Shown here: positions 56,428 to 64,000 of the stretch, one piece after another
Layout of the letters: each line of letters begins with the position of its first letter
How positions within the stretch are numbered: the stretch's first letter is position 1
Origin: Abditibacterium sp.
GTDB taxonomy: Bacteria > Armatimonadota > Abditibacteriia > Abditibacteriales > Abditibacteriaceae
Length of the DNA: 64,000 nucleotides
Assembly: GCA_965199495.1 (NCBI GenBank)
Contig: CBDASK010000003.1
Coordinates: 2,048,001-2,112,000 of the forward strand
Direction of reading: 5' to 3'
The notes under the pieces: model-generated
Seen by the model: the letters and a program-made list of their open reading frames with translations, nothing else
What the model was told of the DNA's origin: nothing
Database searches by the model: none
Made by a program: the position numbers and the translations under genes

Positions 56428-57123
56428 TTAAGACATAAACAAGCGCGAATACAAACGCGCGTGGCGCATTTGCGCGATTTCGAGTTGCGGCGCGTTGGCG
56501 GCCCAATCGCCCGGCGACTTGCCTTTGTTTTGCAGCCACGCTGCCTCGATTTGCGGCAGCAGTTCGCCGATGATTTGCTGACCTTGAGTTTGGCCGATTC
56601 GCATCGCCCGCGTGGCGTTGTTCACGCAACTGCTGAGATTGGCGAACAAAAAACCCGTCGCGGCTTCATCCAAACGGACGTTTAACTCGCGGCAAACCCA
56701 ACCGTAAATCGTCGGATAGGCGCCGACGCACTCGCCGCTCGTAACAGCCACGGCGAGCGGCTCGAAGTCCATGTTTGGATAAAGTGCGCGCGCCAACTGC
56801 AACAAACGCTTGCCGATTTTGCGCTGTCCATCGCGCGCCTCAAACGCCGCGCGCGCGGCGTGTAATTCGCGGTCTAAACGCCAAATTTGCGCGCTTTCCA
56901 GTTCGTAATTCGCTTTAACCAGCATCGCATCGCACGGCGCCCACACGCCAAAAAGCGCGGTTTCGCAAAACGCGCGCAAATCGTCGGCGCCCGCGATTTT
57001 TTCTTCTTGAACCAAAGTTTCCAGTCCGAAAGAATGAGAAAACGCGCCGATGGGCAATGCGCTGTCGAGCAGTTGCAAATGTTGAAGCCGCATGAAAATG
57101 AACTCGAACCGAGGTTGCGTCAT
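56428..57123 (-). CDS. ureF: Urease accessory protein UreF
   Basis: LLDSALPIGAFSHSFGLE, C-terminal YSRLFMS. Confidence 0.95.
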   Translation of the reverse strand: MTQPRFEFIFMRLQHLQLLDSALPIGAFSHSFGLETLVQEEKIAGADDLRAFCETALFGVWAPCDAMLVKANYELESAQIWRLDRELHAARAAFEARDGQRKIGKRLLQLARALYPNMDFEPLAVAVTSGECVGAYPTIYGWVCRELNVRLDEAATGFLFANLSSCVNNATRAMRIGQTQGQQIIGELLPQIEAAWLQNKGKSPGDWAANAPQLEIAQMRHARLYSRLFMS

Positions 57124-57339
57124 TTCATTTTGCGCGGTTCGCGCGCTTTTGCAAAGAGCGAAATTCGGAGCTTACGCGACGAAATTAACGAATTTAACGC
57201 AGGTGAAACAAGGCGGAAATAATTGAGGCCAAAGATAATGCGGCAAACGCGAGCGAACAAAAGCGAAAATTACATAAATATTATTTTTCGGGAACAATTG
57301 TTTTGGCTTCGGCATTGGGAACACTGGAACTTCTCCAAA

Positions 57340-57999
57340 ATGAAACCATCTCTTTCGTCGTCAAAATTGACGCACCATCTGTTGTTCGCCGTGGCTGCAA
57401 CGGCCCTCGTCGCCGGATGCAACGTCGCGCCCGCCCAAGATGCCACGCCCGACGCGATGGCCCCCGACACAATGGCGGCGGATGCTCCTGCTCAAGCGCC
57501 CGCAACGCCCGCAGTCGGCGATATGGCGCCCGATTTCGAGTTGACATCGCTGAGCGGCGACCAAGTCAAACTTTCCGACACGCTCGCTAAAGGCCCGGTT
57601 GTGTTGGTGATGTTGCGCGGTTATCCGGGCTATCAGTGCCCGTTTTGCACCGCGCAAGTCGGCGGTATGATCAACAAAGCCAAAGCGTTGGCCGACAAGG
57701 GCGCCAACGTTTTGCTGGTGTATCCCGGCCCCGCCAACGGCCTGAAAGATCACGCTTCCGAGTTCGTGCAGGGCAAAGACATTCCCGCCAATTTCGATTT
57801 GCTGCTCGACCCCGATTATACGTTCACCAATCTCTATAATTTGCGTTGGGAAGCCAAAAATGAGACTTCTTATCCTTCGACTTTTGTATTGGATGAAGAT
57901 GGCAAAGTCTTGTTCGCCAAAGTCAGCTACGAGCATGGCGACCGCGCCAAAATGGCCGATGTTTTGGCGGCGTTGCCCGCAAAGACCGAAACCGAATAA
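57340..57999 (+). CDS. Peroxiredoxin-like (AhpC/TSA) lipoprotein
   Basis: Lipobox LVAGC, GDMAPDFEL, CPFC. Confidence 0.85.
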   Translation: MKPSLSSSKLTHHLLFAVAATALVAGCNVAPAQDATPDAMAPDTMAADAPAQAPATPAVGDMAPDFELTSLSGDQVKLSDTLAKGPVVLVMLRGYPGYQCPFCTAQVGGMINKAKALADKGANVLLVYPGPANGLKDHASEFVQGKDIPANFDLLLDPDYTFTNLYNLRWEAKNETSYPSTFVLDEDGKVLFAKVSYEHGDRAKMADVLAALPAKTETE

Positions 58000-58018
58000 G
58001 TTTTTAACCAATCACAAC

Positions 58019-58062
58019 CAAAACGGCTCGCGCTTGAATTGTTCAAGCACGAGCCGTTTTTT
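58019..58062. terminator. Bidirectional terminator
   Basis: AAAACGGCTCG...CGAGCCGTTTT between convergent genes. Confidence 0.75.
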
Positions 58063-58077
58063 ATGCGACCGATACCA

Positions 58078-59166
58078 TCAATCCAAGGCTTCGCGCGTTG
58101 GCGGTTTCGCATCGCGCGGGCTTTGCTGAATCAGGCGTTTGGCTTCGGCGGAAAGCGCTTCGGGGCCGATGGCTTCGGGCGGCTTTCTCATCAACGGAAC
58201 CGCGCCGAAGTAAGGCGCGCTGCCATCAACGGTTTGAATTGTCGCCTTGAAGAAATAGGCGGGCTGAATGTAGCCGCCATCGCCATCGTAGTAGTTGATC
58301 GAAACGTCGTTGAGGCTGATTTTGGCGTCTTTGCCCCACTCGCTGCTCAGCAAACGACTGATTTCGGCTTGCGCCTCGCGCTGACTTTTGACATCGTTCG
58401 CAGCGATGGGCTGAGCCTTGCCGACCTCGCGCCACTTGCGATCTAAGCCGATGACTTCGCCTTTATCGCCGATATGCACCACGATTTTGGAGCCGGTGCC
58501 CAGCACTTTTTGCCCATCCAACAGGCGCCCATAAGTCAGCGTGCGCGATTTGTCTATAACCGGGCCGCCTTTGCCGCTATTGGCTTCCGTCATGCGCATA
58601 CCGCCCGTGTGAATCAGGCGCAAATCGGAGGGATTCGCGGGCATCAGACCGGTTTCTTTGAGATAGGACATCGCCAAGTCCTGAGCTTTTCGAGGATCGG
58701 GCAAGTCGGGTTTTGCCTCGCCGAAATATTTGGCCATGCTGCCCGTATAGCTGAGGTTGCCCGTTTTGCGGTCTTGCATAAAGAACGCCGACGGGTCTTT
58801 GGGATCGGCAAAAGTCAGTTCCTCTGCGCCCTCGCCCATTTTGCCCTGCATACCGCCGGGCAACGTGCGCTGGATAATCCGTTGAAAATCGTCGCCATTG
58901 ACGCGCGGCGTTTCAAGGGCGTAGAAGTTCCACTTGGGCCGCCGAATTTGTGGCCCGCCCGGTTTGATTAAGATCGGTTTATCGCCTGCGGGTAACTGTA
59001 AAATCGTCGGATTTTGCAGGGCCGGGCGCCCGGTGGCTGGTTTGTCCACGACGGGTTTGCGCCCCTGAGCCAGCACTGTCCACGCGCCCGAAAGCGCGAC
59101 CAAAGTTAGCGCGGCGGCCATGTGCGGGCGCCGAATTTTCTTGATGATTCCGAAAATATTGTTCAT
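58078..59166 (-). CDS. Secreted hypothetical protein, partner of the DUF6345-like gene
   Basis: Signal peptide; GGAGG RBS; 18 nt downstream of the upstream gene. Confidence 0.75.
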   Translation of the reverse strand: MNNIFGIIKKIRRPHMAAALTLVALSGAWTVLAQGRKPVVDKPATGRPALQNPTILQLPAGDKPILIKPGGPQIRRPKWNFYALETPRVNGDDFQRIIQRTLPGGMQGKMGEGAEELTFADPKDPSAFFMQDRKTGNLSYTGSMAKYFGEAKPDLPDPRKAQDLAMSYLKETGLMPANPSDLRLIHTGGMRMTEANSGKGGPVIDKSRTLTYGRLLDGQKVLGTGSKIVVHIGDKGEVIGLDRKWREVGKAQPIAANDVKSQREAQAEISRLLSSEWGKDAKISLNDVSINYYDGDGGYIQPAYFFKATIQTVDGSAPYFGAVPLMRKPPEAIGPEALSAEAKRLIQQSPRDAKPPTREALD

Positions 59167-59184
59167 GGTTGACCTCCTGTCTTA

Positions 59185-60003
59185 TTAATACTGCCAGTAA
59201 GTGCGGAGCGAATTGTGGTTGGCGGGTGGGTCGTTGCCGTAACTGCCCAGCGAATCGTTATCGAGGCCCGGATAAAGCACGACGCTGGCAAAGCCGGGAT
59301 AGGGCAAATCGTCGCCGTCCCATACGCGCTCGCTGTTGACGGCGGCAAACCACGCGGGCCACATCGCCTGAGAACCGCGCAGACGTTTGCCGAAATCGTT
59401 GGGAATGCCGTTGTCCGACCAACTCAAAGTGCGATAGCCCAACGCCTGATGCAAACCCTGAAAAATATGTTTGCCCCCGGCATCGCGCAGCCACGGGCTA
59501 TACCAATCGGTCAGTTCGGGCGCCGAGGGCACAACCGAACAACTCTCGAAGATGATGAACTCCAAATCGCCGCCTTTGGCGAGGTCGCCATAACCGGTGG
59601 CATCGCGGAAATCGACATCGGCGGTTTTGTTGTGACAGGCCATTCTAAAGTTGGCGCCGTGCCCCGAAAAGAACGCTAAATCCTGCGAGTCCACGTAAGA
59701 GCTTTTGTTGCCCAAAAAGACGTAGGGTTCGGCCCAGTAATATTGGTCATACTTCCACTTGTGGGCGCCCACGCTTTGCGGACTCTTGAAATTCTTGATG
59801 AAGTTCCACACGTTGCGCTGAAAGCGCGGCTCGGCCTGCGCGACATATCCGCCAATCTGGCGATCATCCGCGTTAGCGGGCGTCGCTGGCGCCAACAAAG
59901 TGCCGCACAAAAAGAGCGCACTTCCCATCGCGCCCACGACTTTTCGCTTGCTTTGGCTAATTTTGAACATACGGTTTACCTCCGGTGTATTGACTTCATT
60001 CAC
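59185..60003 (-). CDS. Secreted DUF6345-like protein (His-Cys dyad pattern)
   Basis: VDSQDLAFFSGHG, DLEFIIFESC, FQGLHQALGY. Confidence 0.7.
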   Translation of the reverse strand: MNEVNTPEVNRMFKISQSKRKVVGAMGSALFLCGTLLAPATPANADDRQIGGYVAQAEPRFQRNVWNFIKNFKSPQSVGAHKWKYDQYYWAEPYVFLGNKSSYVDSQDLAFFSGHGANFRMACHNKTADVDFRDATGYGDLAKGGDLEFIIFESCSVVPSAPELTDWYSPWLRDAGGKHIFQGLHQALGYRTLSWSDNGIPNDFGKRLRGSQAMWPAWFAAVNSERVWDGDDLPYPGFASVVLYPGLDNDSLGSYGNDPPANHNSLRTYWQY

Positions 60004-60244
60004 ACATTTTATACTATTAGATATAAAATATGTGAATAATCTCAGAAAATTGCAAATATTATTCCTTAAAATATATCTTTATATTTGACAATGTCGTTTA
60101 TCCATTGTATTTGAATGCGTTGGGAATAGGGATTGAAACACGACAATTAGAGTTGTCAACATTTAAGTTTCGCGGGCTTGCGAACTCGCGCTGGCGCAGA
60201 ATCCGCTTGAACCACGATTAATCCCAAATAGTGGAAATAAAATC

Positions 60245-61255
60245 ATGGAACAAAACCAACAAATTCATCTCGTCAGCCGCCCGCAGGGCACGCCGACGCC
60301 CGACAATTTCAAGATCGTGGACGCAACGACGACCCAACCCACAGACGGCGAAGTCTTGGTGCGCGCGCTTTATCTCTCGGTTGACCCGTATATGCGGGGC
60401 CGCATGAGCGACCGTAAATCGTATGTCCCGCCATTCCAACTCAACGAAACGATGGGCGGCGCCGTCGTCGGTCAAGTCGTCGAATCGAAGTTCGACGGCC
60501 TACAAAAAGGCGACATCGTGATGGGCCATCTGCTGTGGCAAAAGTTCGCCGTCGCGCCCGGCAAGGAACTATTAAAAGTTGACCCGAATCGCGCGCCGAT
60601 TTCGACCGCGTTGGGCGTTTTGGGCATGACTGGTTTGACGGCCTATTTTGGATTGTTAAAAGTCGCCGCGCCGAAAGAGGGCGAAACCGTCGTCGTTTCG
60701 GGCGCGGCGGGCGCGGTTGGCAGCGTCGTCGGGCAAATCGCGAAAATCAAAGGTTGCCGCATCGTCGGCATCGCGGGCGAAGACGAAAAATGCGCTTATC
60801 TGCGCGACGAATTGGGTTTCGACGCGACGATTAATTACAAGACCGACGACGTGGCTGCATCGCTGGCCAAAGCCTGTCCCGATGGCGTTGATGTATATTT
60901 CGACAACGTCGGCGGCGAAATCTCGGATGCGGTTTTGCGTCTCATCAATCACGGCGCGCGCATTTCGGTGTGCGGCCAAATCTCGATGTATAATATGGAA
61001 AAGCCCGACGAAGGCCCGCGCCCGCAACCGCTTTTGCTGACCAACAGCGCGAAGATGCAAGGCTTCATCGTCGGCGATTTTAGCGCCGATTTTGCCGAAG
61101 GACGCGAACAATTGACGCAGTGGTTTAGCGCGGGCAAATTGAAATATGCCGAAAATATCGTCGAAGGTTTCGAGAACACTCCCGATGCGTTTTTGGGTTT
61201 GTTCGAGGGCGAAAATACCGGCAAACAGTTGGTCAAAGTCGGCGAAATGGAGTAG
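60245..61255 (+). CDS. NADP-dependent oxidoreductase (CurA/YncB type)
   Basis: LSVDPYMRGRM, SGAAGAVGS, YFDNVGG, NTGKQLV. Confidence 0.95.
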   Translation: MEQNQQIHLVSRPQGTPTPDNFKIVDATTTQPTDGEVLVRALYLSVDPYMRGRMSDRKSYVPPFQLNETMGGAVVGQVVESKFDGLQKGDIVMGHLLWQKFAVAPGKELLKVDPNRAPISTALGVLGMTGLTAYFGLLKVAAPKEGETVVVSGAAGAVGSVVGQIAKIKGCRIVGIAGEDEKCAYLRDELGFDATINYKTDDVAASLAKACPDGVDVYFDNVGGEISDAVLRLINHGARISVCGQISMYNMEKPDEGPRPQPLLLTNSAKMQGFIVGDFSADFAEGREQLTQWFSAGKLKYAENIVEGFENTPDAFLGLFEGENTGKQLVKVGEME

Positions 61256-61268
61256 AAACTATTTGATG

Positions 61269-61307
61269 AAAAAGCGCCCCGCAATTTTATGTTGTGGGGC
61301 GCTTTTT
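61269..61307. terminator. Bidirectional terminator
   Basis: AAAAAGCGCCCCGCAA-loop-TTGTGGGGCGCTTTTT. Confidence 0.8.
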
Positions 61308-61334
61308 ATGTTTACAATAATAATTGCGGAGTGA

Positions 61335-61811
61335 CTAATTTGGACTATCGCGACGATATTGTTCTTCGCTGACCTCGTCATCCTCCAACGAACGGAGCGC
61401 CACCCAGTAAATTTCCATAAGTTTCAAACGCACTTCGGTATTGTTTCTCTTTTCGCCTTTGACATCTGTGTGCGCACGATTGCCTTCTGGAGTTTCGGGG
61501 CAGCACTGAATCGGCGTGTGTTCCACTCTTTGAAGTGGCACACGACGCGTTGGCCCAACCCTCAATCCCACAATGATGTTATCCGCAGGAACTTTGGCTT
61601 TCTGCAATGATTGATGAGCCGTCGAGTAGCGGTTCCAATCCGTGGACATTCCATCGTTGGGAGATAAGGGCTGACCTTCAGGAGGGCGGTTTCTAAAAGC
61701 TGCGGCCTTAGGTTTCCCGTTCTCCTGAAAACCTTTGTGAACACGATAATAAAGAACGGCATCGTCTGGTATTCCCTCTACTGGCCAATCTGCATCGCTT
61801 GATGATGACAT
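61335..61811 (-). CDS. Hypothetical protein, possible ADP-ribosyltransferase/RES-like fold
   Basis: LYYR, GMSTDW, VEHTP...NRAH pattern. Confidence 0.6.
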   Translation of the reverse strand: MSSSSDADWPVEGIPDDAVLYYRVHKGFQENGKPKAAAFRNRPPEGQPLSPNDGMSTDWNRYSTAHQSLQKAKVPADNIIVGLRVGPTRRVPLQRVEHTPIQCCPETPEGNRAHTDVKGEKRNNTEVRLKLMEIYWVALRSLEDDEVSEEQYRRDSPN

Positions 61812-61845
61812 AATGTTTTCGGATAGTGGCTCAACTCAACATAAA

Positions 61846-62466
61846 CTATTTGCGAGTGGGTTGCGCAGCCCATAGCAGTAACCAAGGCTCAATATGAGAT
61901 GTGTTTAGAGAACCACGCGTTTCGCTACCATCCATCCTGTGACCGTAGTAGTTAGCAGGAGATTCCAACTCAACAGGAATGTTGAGTAGCAACTTTGCAT
62001 GGGGCGTTTCCCAATACAGGTCTATGGTTCCTTCGGGGCCATTTTGCACCTTGGGAATGGCGAACACCAAACCCAACTCCTGAACAAACTTCGCGCTGTC
62101 GATGAGAAAGCGCGCCGCACGTTCCCAGGTCGCTTCGGCATAACCAGGACTACCTTCATCGTCCCAGTTGTTGTGTAAGGCCAGCATCCATCGGGACTCA
62201 TTGAGCGCCTCGGTCAAACCCTTTAACTCCATTGGCAACTCTTCGTCCAATCCAGTAACGCGGGGCAATTGTGGTGAACGAACATCCGCACTCGGCAACA
62301 CCAATATTATTCTCGTTGTTGCATCTTCGCGTCTCGAAGTCGGGCGCTTGATCTGAGATTGCCTTGAAGCATTATCTGATGGCAGTGTGATCCACCATGA
62401 TGGCTCTTCTGTATATTCAAAAAATGAGGTGCATTTACGCACATTAGCAGCAATGCTTAAGCTCAT
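61846..62466 (-). CDS. Hypothetical protein (NWDxxG...GxIxLxW pattern)
   Basis: ATGA overlap with the upstream gene; LHNNWDDEGS, PEGTIDLYW. Confidence 0.7.
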   Translation of the reverse strand: MSLSIAANVRKCTSFFEYTEEPSWWITLPSDNASRQSQIKRPTSRREDATTRIILVLPSADVRSPQLPRVTGLDEELPMELKGLTEALNESRWMLALHNNWDDEGSPGYAEATWERAARFLIDSAKFVQELGLVFAIPKVQNGPEGTIDLYWETPHAKLLLNIPVELESPANYYGHRMDGSETRGSLNTSHIEPWLLLWAAQPTRK

Positions 62467-63170
62467 GAGAGATTCCTTTTAGGTGTCAACTGAGGGACGC
62501 CCGACCTTTCCAACAACTGCGCCGTGACTTGTGCTTTCTGCTCGGCGCGCTGGAGCTTAGTAATGAGTTCGGCTACATCTTTAGGGGAAAGCGTGAGATG
62601 CAGTTGGCGCCAGCCATCGCCTTCCATGTAATCCAGACTCAAAGTGTGAAGCACCAAGGCTCCGGTGATTGCCGTCGCTGAGTTATTAAAGATGTGCCGC
62701 ACATCGGTGTAAACGGCGCTTTCACGCAAAACGCACTGAAAGTCAAAGAGCAACTCGCGCGCCTTGGACATAATGACGATTGCACTCTCTTCTCCCCACG
62801 CTGGAGCGATAATTTCGACACATTCCAACCACTTTTGTCTCACCTCATCCGTCCAGTCGGGAAATTGGCTCTGCTCTAATCCTTTGGCGAATGCCTCGGC
62901 AACAGAAAAGGTCACGTCATTTTCATTCTCAGAGAAATCACGTTCCAAGCGGCTAATGTTAAGTGCCAGAAACAGAACTGACTCAACAATCGTGGGCGTA
63001 ATCTGTTCGCGCCCAATTTGTGTGGAGCAAGCCACAGCTAAATCTTCAACATCCGAGCAGGGTTGAGCGGTCTCCAAATAAGTGGAAATGGCGCGCAGAT
63101 CATCCAATTCAAGATTAAGAATAGCCTGAATATGTGGCCATGCGACTTTAGAAATTTGCACGGGAGGCAT
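62463..63170 (-). CDS. Hypothetical protein, possible prokaryotic COMM-domain (COMMD-like) protein
   Basis: Helical N-terminal region, then three beta-like strands and a long amphipathic helix (LSPKDVAELITKLQRAEQKA). Confidence 0.6.
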   Translation of the reverse strand: MPPVQISKVAWPHIQAILNLELDDLRAISTYLETAQPCSDVEDLAVACSTQIGREQITPTIVESVLFLALNISRLERDFSENENDVTFSVAEAFAKGLEQSQFPDWTDEVRQKWLECVEIIAPAWGEESAIVIMSKARELLFDFQCVLRESAVYTDVRHIFNNSATAITGALVLHTLSLDYMEGDGWRQLHLTLSPKDVAELITKLQRAEQKAQVTAQLLERSGVPQLTPKRNLS

Positions 63171-63308
63171 GAGATGAACCGGAAAATGACAAAGACACAA
63201 TCGGACAGCGCCTTGAAGAATTTCAGTGTTCTAATAATATACCTTTAAATTGCCAATTCAGTCCACCAAAGGATTACTAAAAGTGAATTTTTGAGTGCCG
63301 GACAAATT

Positions 63309-64000
63309 TCAAAACAAGAAATAACGTTGCGTCATCGGCAATTCCGTCGCCGGTTCGCAGGTCAACAGTTCGCCATCGGCGCGAACTTCGTAAGTTTCAG
63401 GATTGACGCTAATTTCGGGCGTCGCGTCGTTGTGAATCATGTCGGCTTTGCTCACATCGCGGCAATTGCGCACCGCTTCGATGCGGCGTTCCAATCCCAA
63501 TTTTTCCGGCAAACCTTCGTCTAAAGCGATTTGCGAAACGAAAGTCAAACTCGTCTGGCGGCGCGCGAGGCCGAAATTGGCGAACATCGGGCGGCCCCAT
63601 TGCGGTTGCGGCGTGGGAATCGAGGCGTTCGGGTCGCCCATCTGGGCGTAGGCGATGGCGCCGCCTTTGAGAACCATTTCGGGTTTGACGCCGAAAAACG
63701 CCGGATTCCAGATCACTAAATCGGCGAATTTGCCGACTTCGATTGAGCCGACCAAATGCGCGATGCCGTGCGCGCGCGCCGGGTTGATGCCGACTTTGGC
63801 GATGTAACGTTTGATGCGCGCGTTGTCGGAATGGTTATCGTCGCCGCTTAAAGCGCCGCGTTGCGTTTTCATTTTGTGCGCGGTTTGCCAGGTGCGCGTG
63901 ATGACTTCGCCGATGCGGCCCATCGCCTGCGAATCGGAACTGATCATCGAAAAGACGCCCAAATCGTGCAAAATATCTTCGGCGGCGATAGTTTCCGAGC
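63309..64000 (-). CDS. ureC: Urease subunit alpha (3' part; gene starts beyond the window)
   Basis: [34 protein letters not shown]. Confidence 0.97.

Follow-up and report, generated by a model that had tools for sequence, protein, structure and literature searches.

The Cassette and Its Surroundings

The stretch of Abditibacterium sp. DNA analyzed here (64,000 nucleotides, positions 2,048,001 to 2,112,000 of contig CBDASK010000003.1, GenBank assembly GCA_965199495.1; hereafter the window) carries a cassette of three co-oriented open reading frames (ORFs) on the minus strand, in the order gene 1, gene 2, gene 3. Gene 1 (62463..63170) encodes 235 aa from an ATG, or 245 aa from an alternative TTG start 30 nt upstream, and by profile matching it is a prokaryotic COMMD-like protein with a helical N-terminal part followed by a C-terminal COMM domain; we regard it as a candidate chaperone or sensor ring. 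Gene 2 (61846..62466) encodes a probable antitoxin of 206 aa, whose folded domain (approximately residues 70–200) appears to belong to the family of the PDC-M32A C-terminal domain. Its N-terminal extension (residues 1–62, 62281..62466, minus strand) is poorly conserved and modeled with low confidence, and may be an element resembling those used in chaperone addiction. Gene 3 (61335..61811) encodes a probable toxin of 158 aa with a predicted ADP-ribosyltransferase (ART) fold and an R23-S56-H114 triad.

An ATGA overlap joins genes 1 and 2, and 34 nt separate genes 2 and 3. Upstream of gene 1 lies an AT-rich leader (63171..63308, minus strand; 138 nt, 37% GC), likely the promoter region, which reaches to a urease alpha-subunit ORF, named by eye without a family search, that ends at 63309 on the same strand, 138 nt upstream of gene 1. 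One sigma-70-like site is present in the leader (63236-63265), where 2.1 sites are expected by chance. An earlier note on this DNA had described the three gene lengths, the overlap, the gap, the separate leader, and the position behind ureC, all of which we confirm. It had also seen no transmembrane helix, and by hydropathy, the one measure applied, none is evident: the highest 19-residue values are 1.35, 1.24, and 0.36 for genes 1, 2, and 3. Because each ORF has conserved homologs (13 for gene 1, 63 for gene 2, and 11 for gene 3, query counted), we consider all three to be genes.

Gene 1 and the COMMD-like Proteins

A profile built from 11 gene 1 homologs matches the COMMD-like protein MBK5214510 (PDB 9q6a) with an E value of 3.2e-16, the next match having an E value of 0.014. 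The alignment joins profile positions 6-213 to chain residues 22-228 and thus spans nearly the whole length, including both the helical N-terminal domain and the COMM domain. Gene 1 also shares its size and domain order with prokaryotic COMMD-like proteins (PMC13392464). Based on this sequence comparison we assign gene 1 to that family, as the earlier note had guessed in calling it COMM-like; the family has 3838 representatives at 50% identity. Solved prokaryotic COMMD-like proteins form rings of 8 or 10 subunits (PMC13392464; PDB 9q6a, 9q6c, and 9q6d), and by analogy gene 1 may form such a ring. The 2026 paper that describes these proteins states that their function is unknown and reports type VI secretion system-like neighbors in Myxococcota (PMC13392464), whereas the neighbors here are an antitoxin-toxin-like pair. 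Its main text nowhere uses the terms toxin, operon, defence, or defense.

Gene 3 and the ART Fold

The structural model of gene 3 (predicted local distance difference test, pLDDT, 90.5) was compared widely with known structures. The best match is a 2'-phosphotransferase-type entry (Z 8.2, rmsd 2.8, 93 residues aligned), followed among others by a second entry of this type (Z 6.9), Tse2 (6.3), Scabin (6.3), a RES-type toxin (6.0), TreX (5.9), TreTu (5.5), and DarT (5.5). Of the 50 matches listed, all except two or three are ART-fold proteins by entry title or by our own classification, and the model has the split beta-sheet of the ART fold. No single Z-score is decisive; it is the agreement of many middling matches that leads us to consider gene 3 an ART-fold protein at the level of its predicted structure, in agreement with the earlier note. 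A sequence search of solved structures with the gene 3 profile gave nothing significant, and a Foldseek search of a viral library gave no match at E 0.001, its third-ranked entry being a phage putative RNA 2'-phosphotransferase (E 0.07). DUF6098, the nearest Atlas label for gene 3, was rejected; it was not found in this genome, and no control matched. Genes 2 and 3 fell only in unnamed Atlas clusters.

The candidate catalytic residues are highly conserved over 70 rows (R23 94%, S56 99%, and H114 99%), and distant relatives mostly retain them. They lie on strands 19-25, 54-59, and 114-118 of the model, which by our own assignment are those that bear the triad in ARTs. Gene 3 does not have a classic ART triad (R-S-E, H-Y-E, or H-H-h) but an R-S-H variant in which the strand-5 glutamate is absent. 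Tse2 uses R-S-H. TreTu is a characterized toxin with a similarly unorthodox site (PMC9825190), and the toxins of TreTu-TriTu (PMC9825190) and Tse2-Tsi2 (PMC6099711) are, like gene 3, small ART-fold proteins with an arginine on strand 1, a serine on strand 2, and no glutamate on strand 5. In structure, gene 3 resembles Tse2 (Z 6.3) and TreTu (Z 5.5) and gene 2 weakly resembles the immunity protein TriTu (Z 5.2), all within the range that the search tool calls common. In contrast to both systems, there is no secretion or Rhs carrier domain here, and the antitoxin gene lies upstream. Gene 3 is probably a toxin; its fold suggests that it uses NAD, and its target is likely to be a nucleic acid, a translation factor, or NAD itself.

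Gene 2 and Its Predicted Complex with Gene 3

Residues 70–200 of gene 2 are modeled approximately as helices packed with an antiparallel sheet, and pLDDT falls below 50 at residues 1-10 and 13-62. The match of this domain to TriTu (rmsd 2.8, 76 of 87 residues aligned) ranks fifth. The best rows, Mediator subunit 17 (Z 6.3 and 5.6) and capping protein (Z 5.5), were taken to reflect a common alpha/beta arrangement and rejected. A Foldseek search of the PDB with gene 2 gave no match at E 0.001, and a sequence search of solved structures with its profile gave nothing significant.

A model of gene 3 (residues 6-150) bound to gene 2 (residues 62-206) scored 0.86, compared with 0.03 for the best of three controls, although resemblance to solved toxin-immunity pairs may have helped this score. 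Contacts agreed between runs at 98% or more, and partner pLDDT was at least 86. Of 157 solved pairs 116 reach the mark used for this score, as do 2 of 215 mismatched pairs; for author-made alignments such as ours these figures are rough. On gene 2, the predicted interface is more conserved than the remainder (0.66 vs 0.45) and includes the invariant D102, D149, L160, and N162; on gene 3 it includes H25, F39, K121, E126, and R128. The model thus supports binding of gene 3 by a conserved face of the folded domain of gene 2. Type II toxin-antitoxin (TA) systems have adjacent, co-oriented genes whose products bind each other, and the binding modeled here is support for this arrangement, not proof. 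Given the difference between the complex score and its controls, genes 2 and 3 most likely encode an antitoxin-toxin pair. The earlier note had left open whether gene 2 is an antitoxin or an adaptor; the complex model favors the former and not a mere adaptor.

Conservation of Order and an Exchangeable First Slot

All three genes occur in the same order in seven loci (L001, L002, L008, L009, L030, L033, and L034, where L and G numbers are our handles for loci and genomes), which come from this genome, from G004, G057, and G233, and, for the last three, from metagenome records. A further locus, L022, holds genes 1 and 2 and then reaches the end of the contig. In searches with gene 2, an ART-like gene is next in 13 of 17 genome matches and in 5 of 5 metagenome loci. 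The first slot is more variable. Among the genome matches it is taken by a COMMD-like gene in four cases and by a TIGR04255 gene in three (E <1e-39), and is otherwise empty, with an AbrB-like N-terminal segment recognized by eye in three; in the metagenome loci it holds a COMMD-like gene in three, another gene in one, and none in one. Pairs of this kind also follow TIGR04255 genes in L042-L044, L098, and L100, and the present genome has a second triad of this type outside the window (C3:2685847-2687640, minus strand, 49% GC), composed of a TIGR04255-like gene (254 aa), a gene 2-like gene (166 aa), and an ART-like gene (165 aa). Two further first genes that precede the gene 2-gene 3 pair (L006:2464-3327, 287 aa; L032:447-1142, 231 aa) fall in neither the COMMD-like nor the TIGR04255 group according to our profiles. 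For the third gene of L035 the profile of close gene 3 homologs gave no match (E 0.32); its place among the ART-like genes rests on a second profile, made from distant members with L035 left out (E 7.8e-12). In L018 no third gene was found.

The core thus consists of genes 2 and 3, headed by a modular slot whose occupant can be exchanged. The earlier note's view of the trio as a module holds insofar as the three genes recur together; they do not form a fixed unit. Compared with this locus, L033 and L034 show 15-20% identity in gene 1 and 45% in gene 3, which suggests from sequence divergence that different COMMD clades have been paired repeatedly with the same gene 2-gene 3 pair.

Searches with COMMD profiles gave 21 distinct loci, of which 4 end at contig ends and 17 are informative; weak matches inside long unrelated ORFs (L016, L017, L019, and L076) were dropped before counting. 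Five of the 17 have a gene 2-like and an ART-like gene next, and two have a gene 2-like gene alone, one of them at a contig end and the other with its COMMD gene in two frames. In two loci the COMMD-like gene is followed by a small gene and a PIN gene (E 1e-7 and 2e-11), and in two by a small gene and a Fic/Doc gene (E 2e-8 and 4e-12); these four are L054:1366-3001, L012:731-2175, L056:3-1110, and, on a viral contig, L059:2641-4456. The third gene is thereby assigned to a toxin family by profile in 9 of the 17 informative loci. Two more carry a pair whose third gene is HEPN-like by eye, and another two are followed by a pair without a family label. In all 12 loci checked, the distance from the first gene to the second is −4 to +13 nt, with a 4-nt overlap in 7, the starts having been chosen by us. 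A functional tie between gene 1 and the pair formed by genes 2 and 3 is, in our view, quite likely.

Some of these loci hold genes of other kinds. L010:1474-3162 and L055:1480-3220 encode a COMMD-like protein, a protein with a nucleotidyltransferase-like end, and the HEPN-like protein, the last two labels being by eye and neither of them backed by a database match. At L068:440-2184 and L069:564-2178 the COMMD-like gene precedes a conserved pair whose last protein is papain-like by eye, with a conserved Cys-containing motif near the N-terminus, a His later, and no PADLOC match.

The N-Terminal Extension of Gene 2

Second genes that follow a first gene have longer N-terminal extensions. The position equivalent to W101 has a median of 96 in homologs with a first gene (n=13; 95 for the 8 that are COMMD-linked) and of 41 in those with no first gene or an unrelated one (n=9). 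This comparison leaves out the three homologs with an AbrB-like segment and L035, in which the anchor is unaligned, and its nominal p value of 1e-4 is overstated, being confounded by kinship and start calls. In this locus the extension contains the aromatic residues F15, F16, Y18, W24, and W25. In SecB-type toxin-antitoxin-chaperone (TAC) systems, the antitoxin depends on the chaperone through a chaperone-addiction element, which is unstructured and has aromatic residues that are key to it, and phage proteins compete for the chaperone (10.1101/2024.02.24.581848, PMC11618068). By analogy, gene 1 may be a chaperone or sensor that acts through the extension of gene 2, a possibility that we rate slightly below an even chance.

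Foreign Composition and Mobility

The cassette has a GC content of 0.495 compared with 0.557 for the genome, which places it at the 3.5th percentile among 2570 tiles of its size, and its CGCG count of 12 against a tile median of 37 lies at the 2.5th percentile. Codon adaptation ranks at the 9th, 1st, and 4th percentiles among 2457 long ORFs for genes 1, 2, and 3. The lower GC content and the horizontal origin proposed in the earlier note are thus upheld, whereas its statement that the cassette lacks the CGCGCG style of the host stands only in part: the hexamers CGCGCG and GCGCGC are depleted (5 vs 14, 11th percentile) and still present. Gene 1 is found in 1 of the 12 other genomes of the genus, at a different site with different flanks. 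Across the phylum, the gene 1 family occurs in 12 of 301 genomes, including two weak matches later dropped, and the gene 3 family in 7 of 301; in all seven trio loci the cassette has a lower GC content than its flanks. Based on the foreign composition and the single occurrence of gene 1 elsewhere in the genus, at another site, we conclude that the cassette was horizontally acquired and is mobile.

No empty insertion site was found; what comes after the orthologous oxidoreductase in G011 is an unrelated gene and not urease. Searches of plasmids with tblastn gave no match for gene 3, for one gene 3 homolog, or for two COMMD homologs, and the same search of phages gave none for one COMMD homolog. 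A search of viral contigs with gene 2 gave no relative.

Relation to Known Systems

The closest parallel in hypothesized working is CmdTAC (PD-T4-9; PMC11618068, 10.1101/2024.02.24.581848). As far as the available text describes it, CmdTAC likewise combines an ART-fold toxin, an antitoxin with a long unstructured part, and an oligomeric accessory protein, a state that we predict for gene 1. In TAC systems, as here, the accessory gene adjoins the unstructured end of the antitoxin, and the same accessory serves several toxin families. The differences are nonetheless substantial. The accessory protein here is COMMD-like and not SecB-like, and no SecB family is among the Pfam or NCBIfam hits for gene 1. 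The order accessory-antitoxin-toxin is the reverse of that in CmdTAC. The low-confidence part of the modeled antitoxin is N-terminal (residues 1-62) and its C-terminal part is folded, whereas the chaperone-addiction element of CmdTAC is C-terminal; the antitoxin has a folded alpha/beta domain and not the two helices reported for CmdTAC; and the triad is R-S-H compared with H-Y-[EDQ] in CmdT (PMC11618068). Lacking SecB, a C-terminal element, and the CmdT triad, the cassette is not a member of the TAC group as defined, and the resemblance would lie in how it works.

Genes 2 and 3 appear from sequence to be distantly related to PDC-M32 (A+B), which is one of 145 untested phage defense candidates in PADLOC (10.1101/2024.01.29.577857); a PDC has also been noted in a Sinorhizobium prophage (PMC12429752). 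Distant homologs of gene 2 match the PDC-M32A profile at positions of about 257-365 with E values down to 7e-10, and the gene order is the same. PDC-M32A (about 375 aa) has some 250 additional N-terminal residues that are unrelated to COMMD at E 0.01; PDC-M32 has no COMMD gene, and gene 2 itself (206 aa) does not match PDC-M32A at E 1. On the toxin side, PDC-M32B matches the third gene of L042 (E 2.4e-4) and, weakly, gene 3 itself over residues 16-59 (E 0.035), and 0 of 63 close homologs match it at E 0.01; a link at profile level goes by way of the more remote ART-like members (hhalign probability 96.8, E 2.8e-10). A full-length PDC-M32 pair is present at L093. At L094:824-2163 an N-terminal domain of PDC-M32A is, by eye, fused to a short antitoxin-like tail before a PIN-like gene, and by this reading the domain would be another accessory domain common to several toxin families.

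Scans of genes 1–3 against Pfam, NCBIfam, and PADLOC gave nothing above cut-off. The view of the earlier note that no named system has this composition is thus sustained, PDC-M32 being a distant relative only. A later survey of TAC classes reportedly includes ART toxins and may overlap with our results on the toxin side. In the open-access literature, which was the scope of our search, we found no paper linking COMM domains to TA systems or COMMD-like proteins to phage, none naming TIGR04255, and no survey of non-SecB TAC systems, the available text of PMC11980606 included.

A Proposed TAC-like Mechanism and Its Alternatives

We propose that the cassette is a mobile TAC-like module in which a COMMD ring takes the place of SecB, a reading that we favor while placing the whole chain of events just short of an even chance. 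Gene 3 would be an NAD-using ART-fold toxin and gene 2 an antitoxin bound to it through the folded domain. The COMMD ring of gene 1 would grip the unstructured extension of gene 2 and thereby stabilize the pair; a phage protein or one born of stress would then compete for the ring, the antitoxin would be lost, and the toxin would arrest growth. The part assigned to gene 1 and the release of the toxin are drawn from the analogy with SecB-type TAC and from gene context. TAC logic with ART toxins is itself established (PMC11618068, 10.1101/2024.02.24.581848).

Several observations weigh against this hypothesis. The gene 2-gene 3 pair stands without any first gene in L027, L029, L031, L046, and L047, and gene 1 is therefore not essential for the pair. 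Among the 17 informative loci, the COMMD-like gene has membrane-protein-like neighbors in one (L004) and is alone in another (L014). A single phylum contributes nearly all of the loci, related loci do not count as separate cases, and gene 1 served as the seed for the COMMD profiles. Extension lengths hang on start calls, they were compared among sequences linked by kinship, and there are two exceptions to the trend, L027 (82) and L045 (64). The low pLDDT of the extension may stem from a shallow alignment (13 rows). As for the pair itself, the predicted interface of gene 3 is no more conserved than the rest of the protein (0.36 vs 0.42) and does not include R23, S56, or H114. The Z-scores of gene 3 are all 8.2 or lower, at or below the range that the tool calls common; its top single match belongs to a nontoxic enzyme class, the tRNA 2'-phosphotransferases; and Foldseek found no match for it in the PDB at E 0.001. 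The available text on COMMD-like proteins reports no predicted complexes with neighbors in the clusters examined (PMC13392464). Finally, the earlier note proposed a check for enrichment in defense islands, and the linkage is weak: of the five trio loci for which 4 kb or more was read on a side, one stands beside a recognizable defense gene (L030, where a type I methyltransferase adjoins the trio), the other four having none by eye.

Gene 1 could instead be functional without being a chaperone, either as a scaffold that oligomerizes the TA complex, as a sensor that releases the toxin directly, or as an operon regulator that replaces a DNA-binding domain. Neither family scans nor the model revealed such a domain in gene 2, four stand-alone relatives (L049, L051, L052, and L101) have an AbrB-like N-terminal segment by eye, and COMM domains resemble Whirly/Pur-alpha folds (PMC13392464, discussion). 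A role as regulator is at odds with the net charge of gene 1 (−14) and with the apparent absence of nucleic-acid-binding surface residues in COMMD-like proteins, as the available text has it (PMC13392464), and the AbrB-like label found no support in Pfam, NCBIfam, or PDB. We consider this group of explanations unlikely.

It is unlikely, too, that genes 2 and 3 form a self-sufficient TA pair and that the COMMD-like gene is cargo or serves a separate function, stabilized by addiction and without protein contact. The stand-alone pairs, the many kinds of neighbors of COMMD-like genes, and the lack of predicted complexes noted above would all fit such an arrangement. However, a COMMD-like gene comes first, and tightly coupled, before pairs of at least three toxin families, a constancy of order and spacing that is not expected of cargo, and second genes behind a first gene have the longer extensions. 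That gene 3 is a nontoxic NAD-dependent transferase of the Tpt1/KptA type, active in RNA repair or signaling with gene 2 as its regulatory subunit, is very unlikely, for although its top two fold matches are of 2'-phosphotransferase type, as is, putatively, the third-ranked viral entry, Tpt1-type enzymes have an H-H-h triad (PMC9825190) and not R-S-H, the distribution of gene 3 is sporadic and foreign, and its slot is shared with PIN and Fic/Doc toxins.

Under the TAC-like hypothesis, the case for phage as the trigger is evenly balanced. The evidence for a role in phage defense is indirect and comprises the analogy with TAC systems, the kinship with PDC-M32, the methyltransferase at L030, a gene for restriction enzyme HsdR next to a gene 2 homolog, and two loci on viral contigs (L006 and L059). 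The homolog in question, at L041:164-3251, has no ART partner and lies between a Ser/Thr kinase gene and the type I HsdR gene.

A generalization of this hypothesis is more doubtful. Many prokaryotic COMMD-like rings might constitute a second class of TA chaperones or sensors parallel to SecB, gripping the unstructured extensions of ART, PIN, and Fic/Doc antitoxins and releasing them when phage proteins are sensed; TIGR04255 proteins, which occupy the same slot, would make up a third class. If so, TAC-type phage sensing would extend beyond SecB, the gene 2 family and TIGR04255 would gain a role, and PDC-M32 a likely ART toxin-antitoxin mechanism. The COMMD fold that eukaryotes use in the Commander trafficking complex would in that case go back to a ring that gripped peptides in bacterial immunity, which would bear on how the eukaryotic COMMD ring, a binder of extended segments of partner proteins, arose. 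This family of loci yields a hypothesis that is concrete, testable, and small enough to clone, in which COMMD-like rings are TA accessory factors.

Features Flanking the Cassette

Within the window, about 6.2 kb (57123-63309) part the urease alpha-subunit ORF from ureF-ureG-ureD-like ORFs. Besides the cassette, this interval contains a peroxiredoxin-like lipoprotein, a secreted pair that includes DUF6345, and a zinc-type oxidoreductase, the names being by eye except for Pfam matches, and the junction may be a hot spot of insertion. Between gene 3 and the convergent oxidoreductase gene, an inverted repeat flanked on both sides by A/T runs (61269..61307, no strand assigned) was recognized by eye; it is likely a two-way terminator, although the terminator scan did not list it. 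Because a similar hairpin also follows the orthologous oxidoreductase in G011, which has no cassette at that place, the repeat likely belongs to the host gene.

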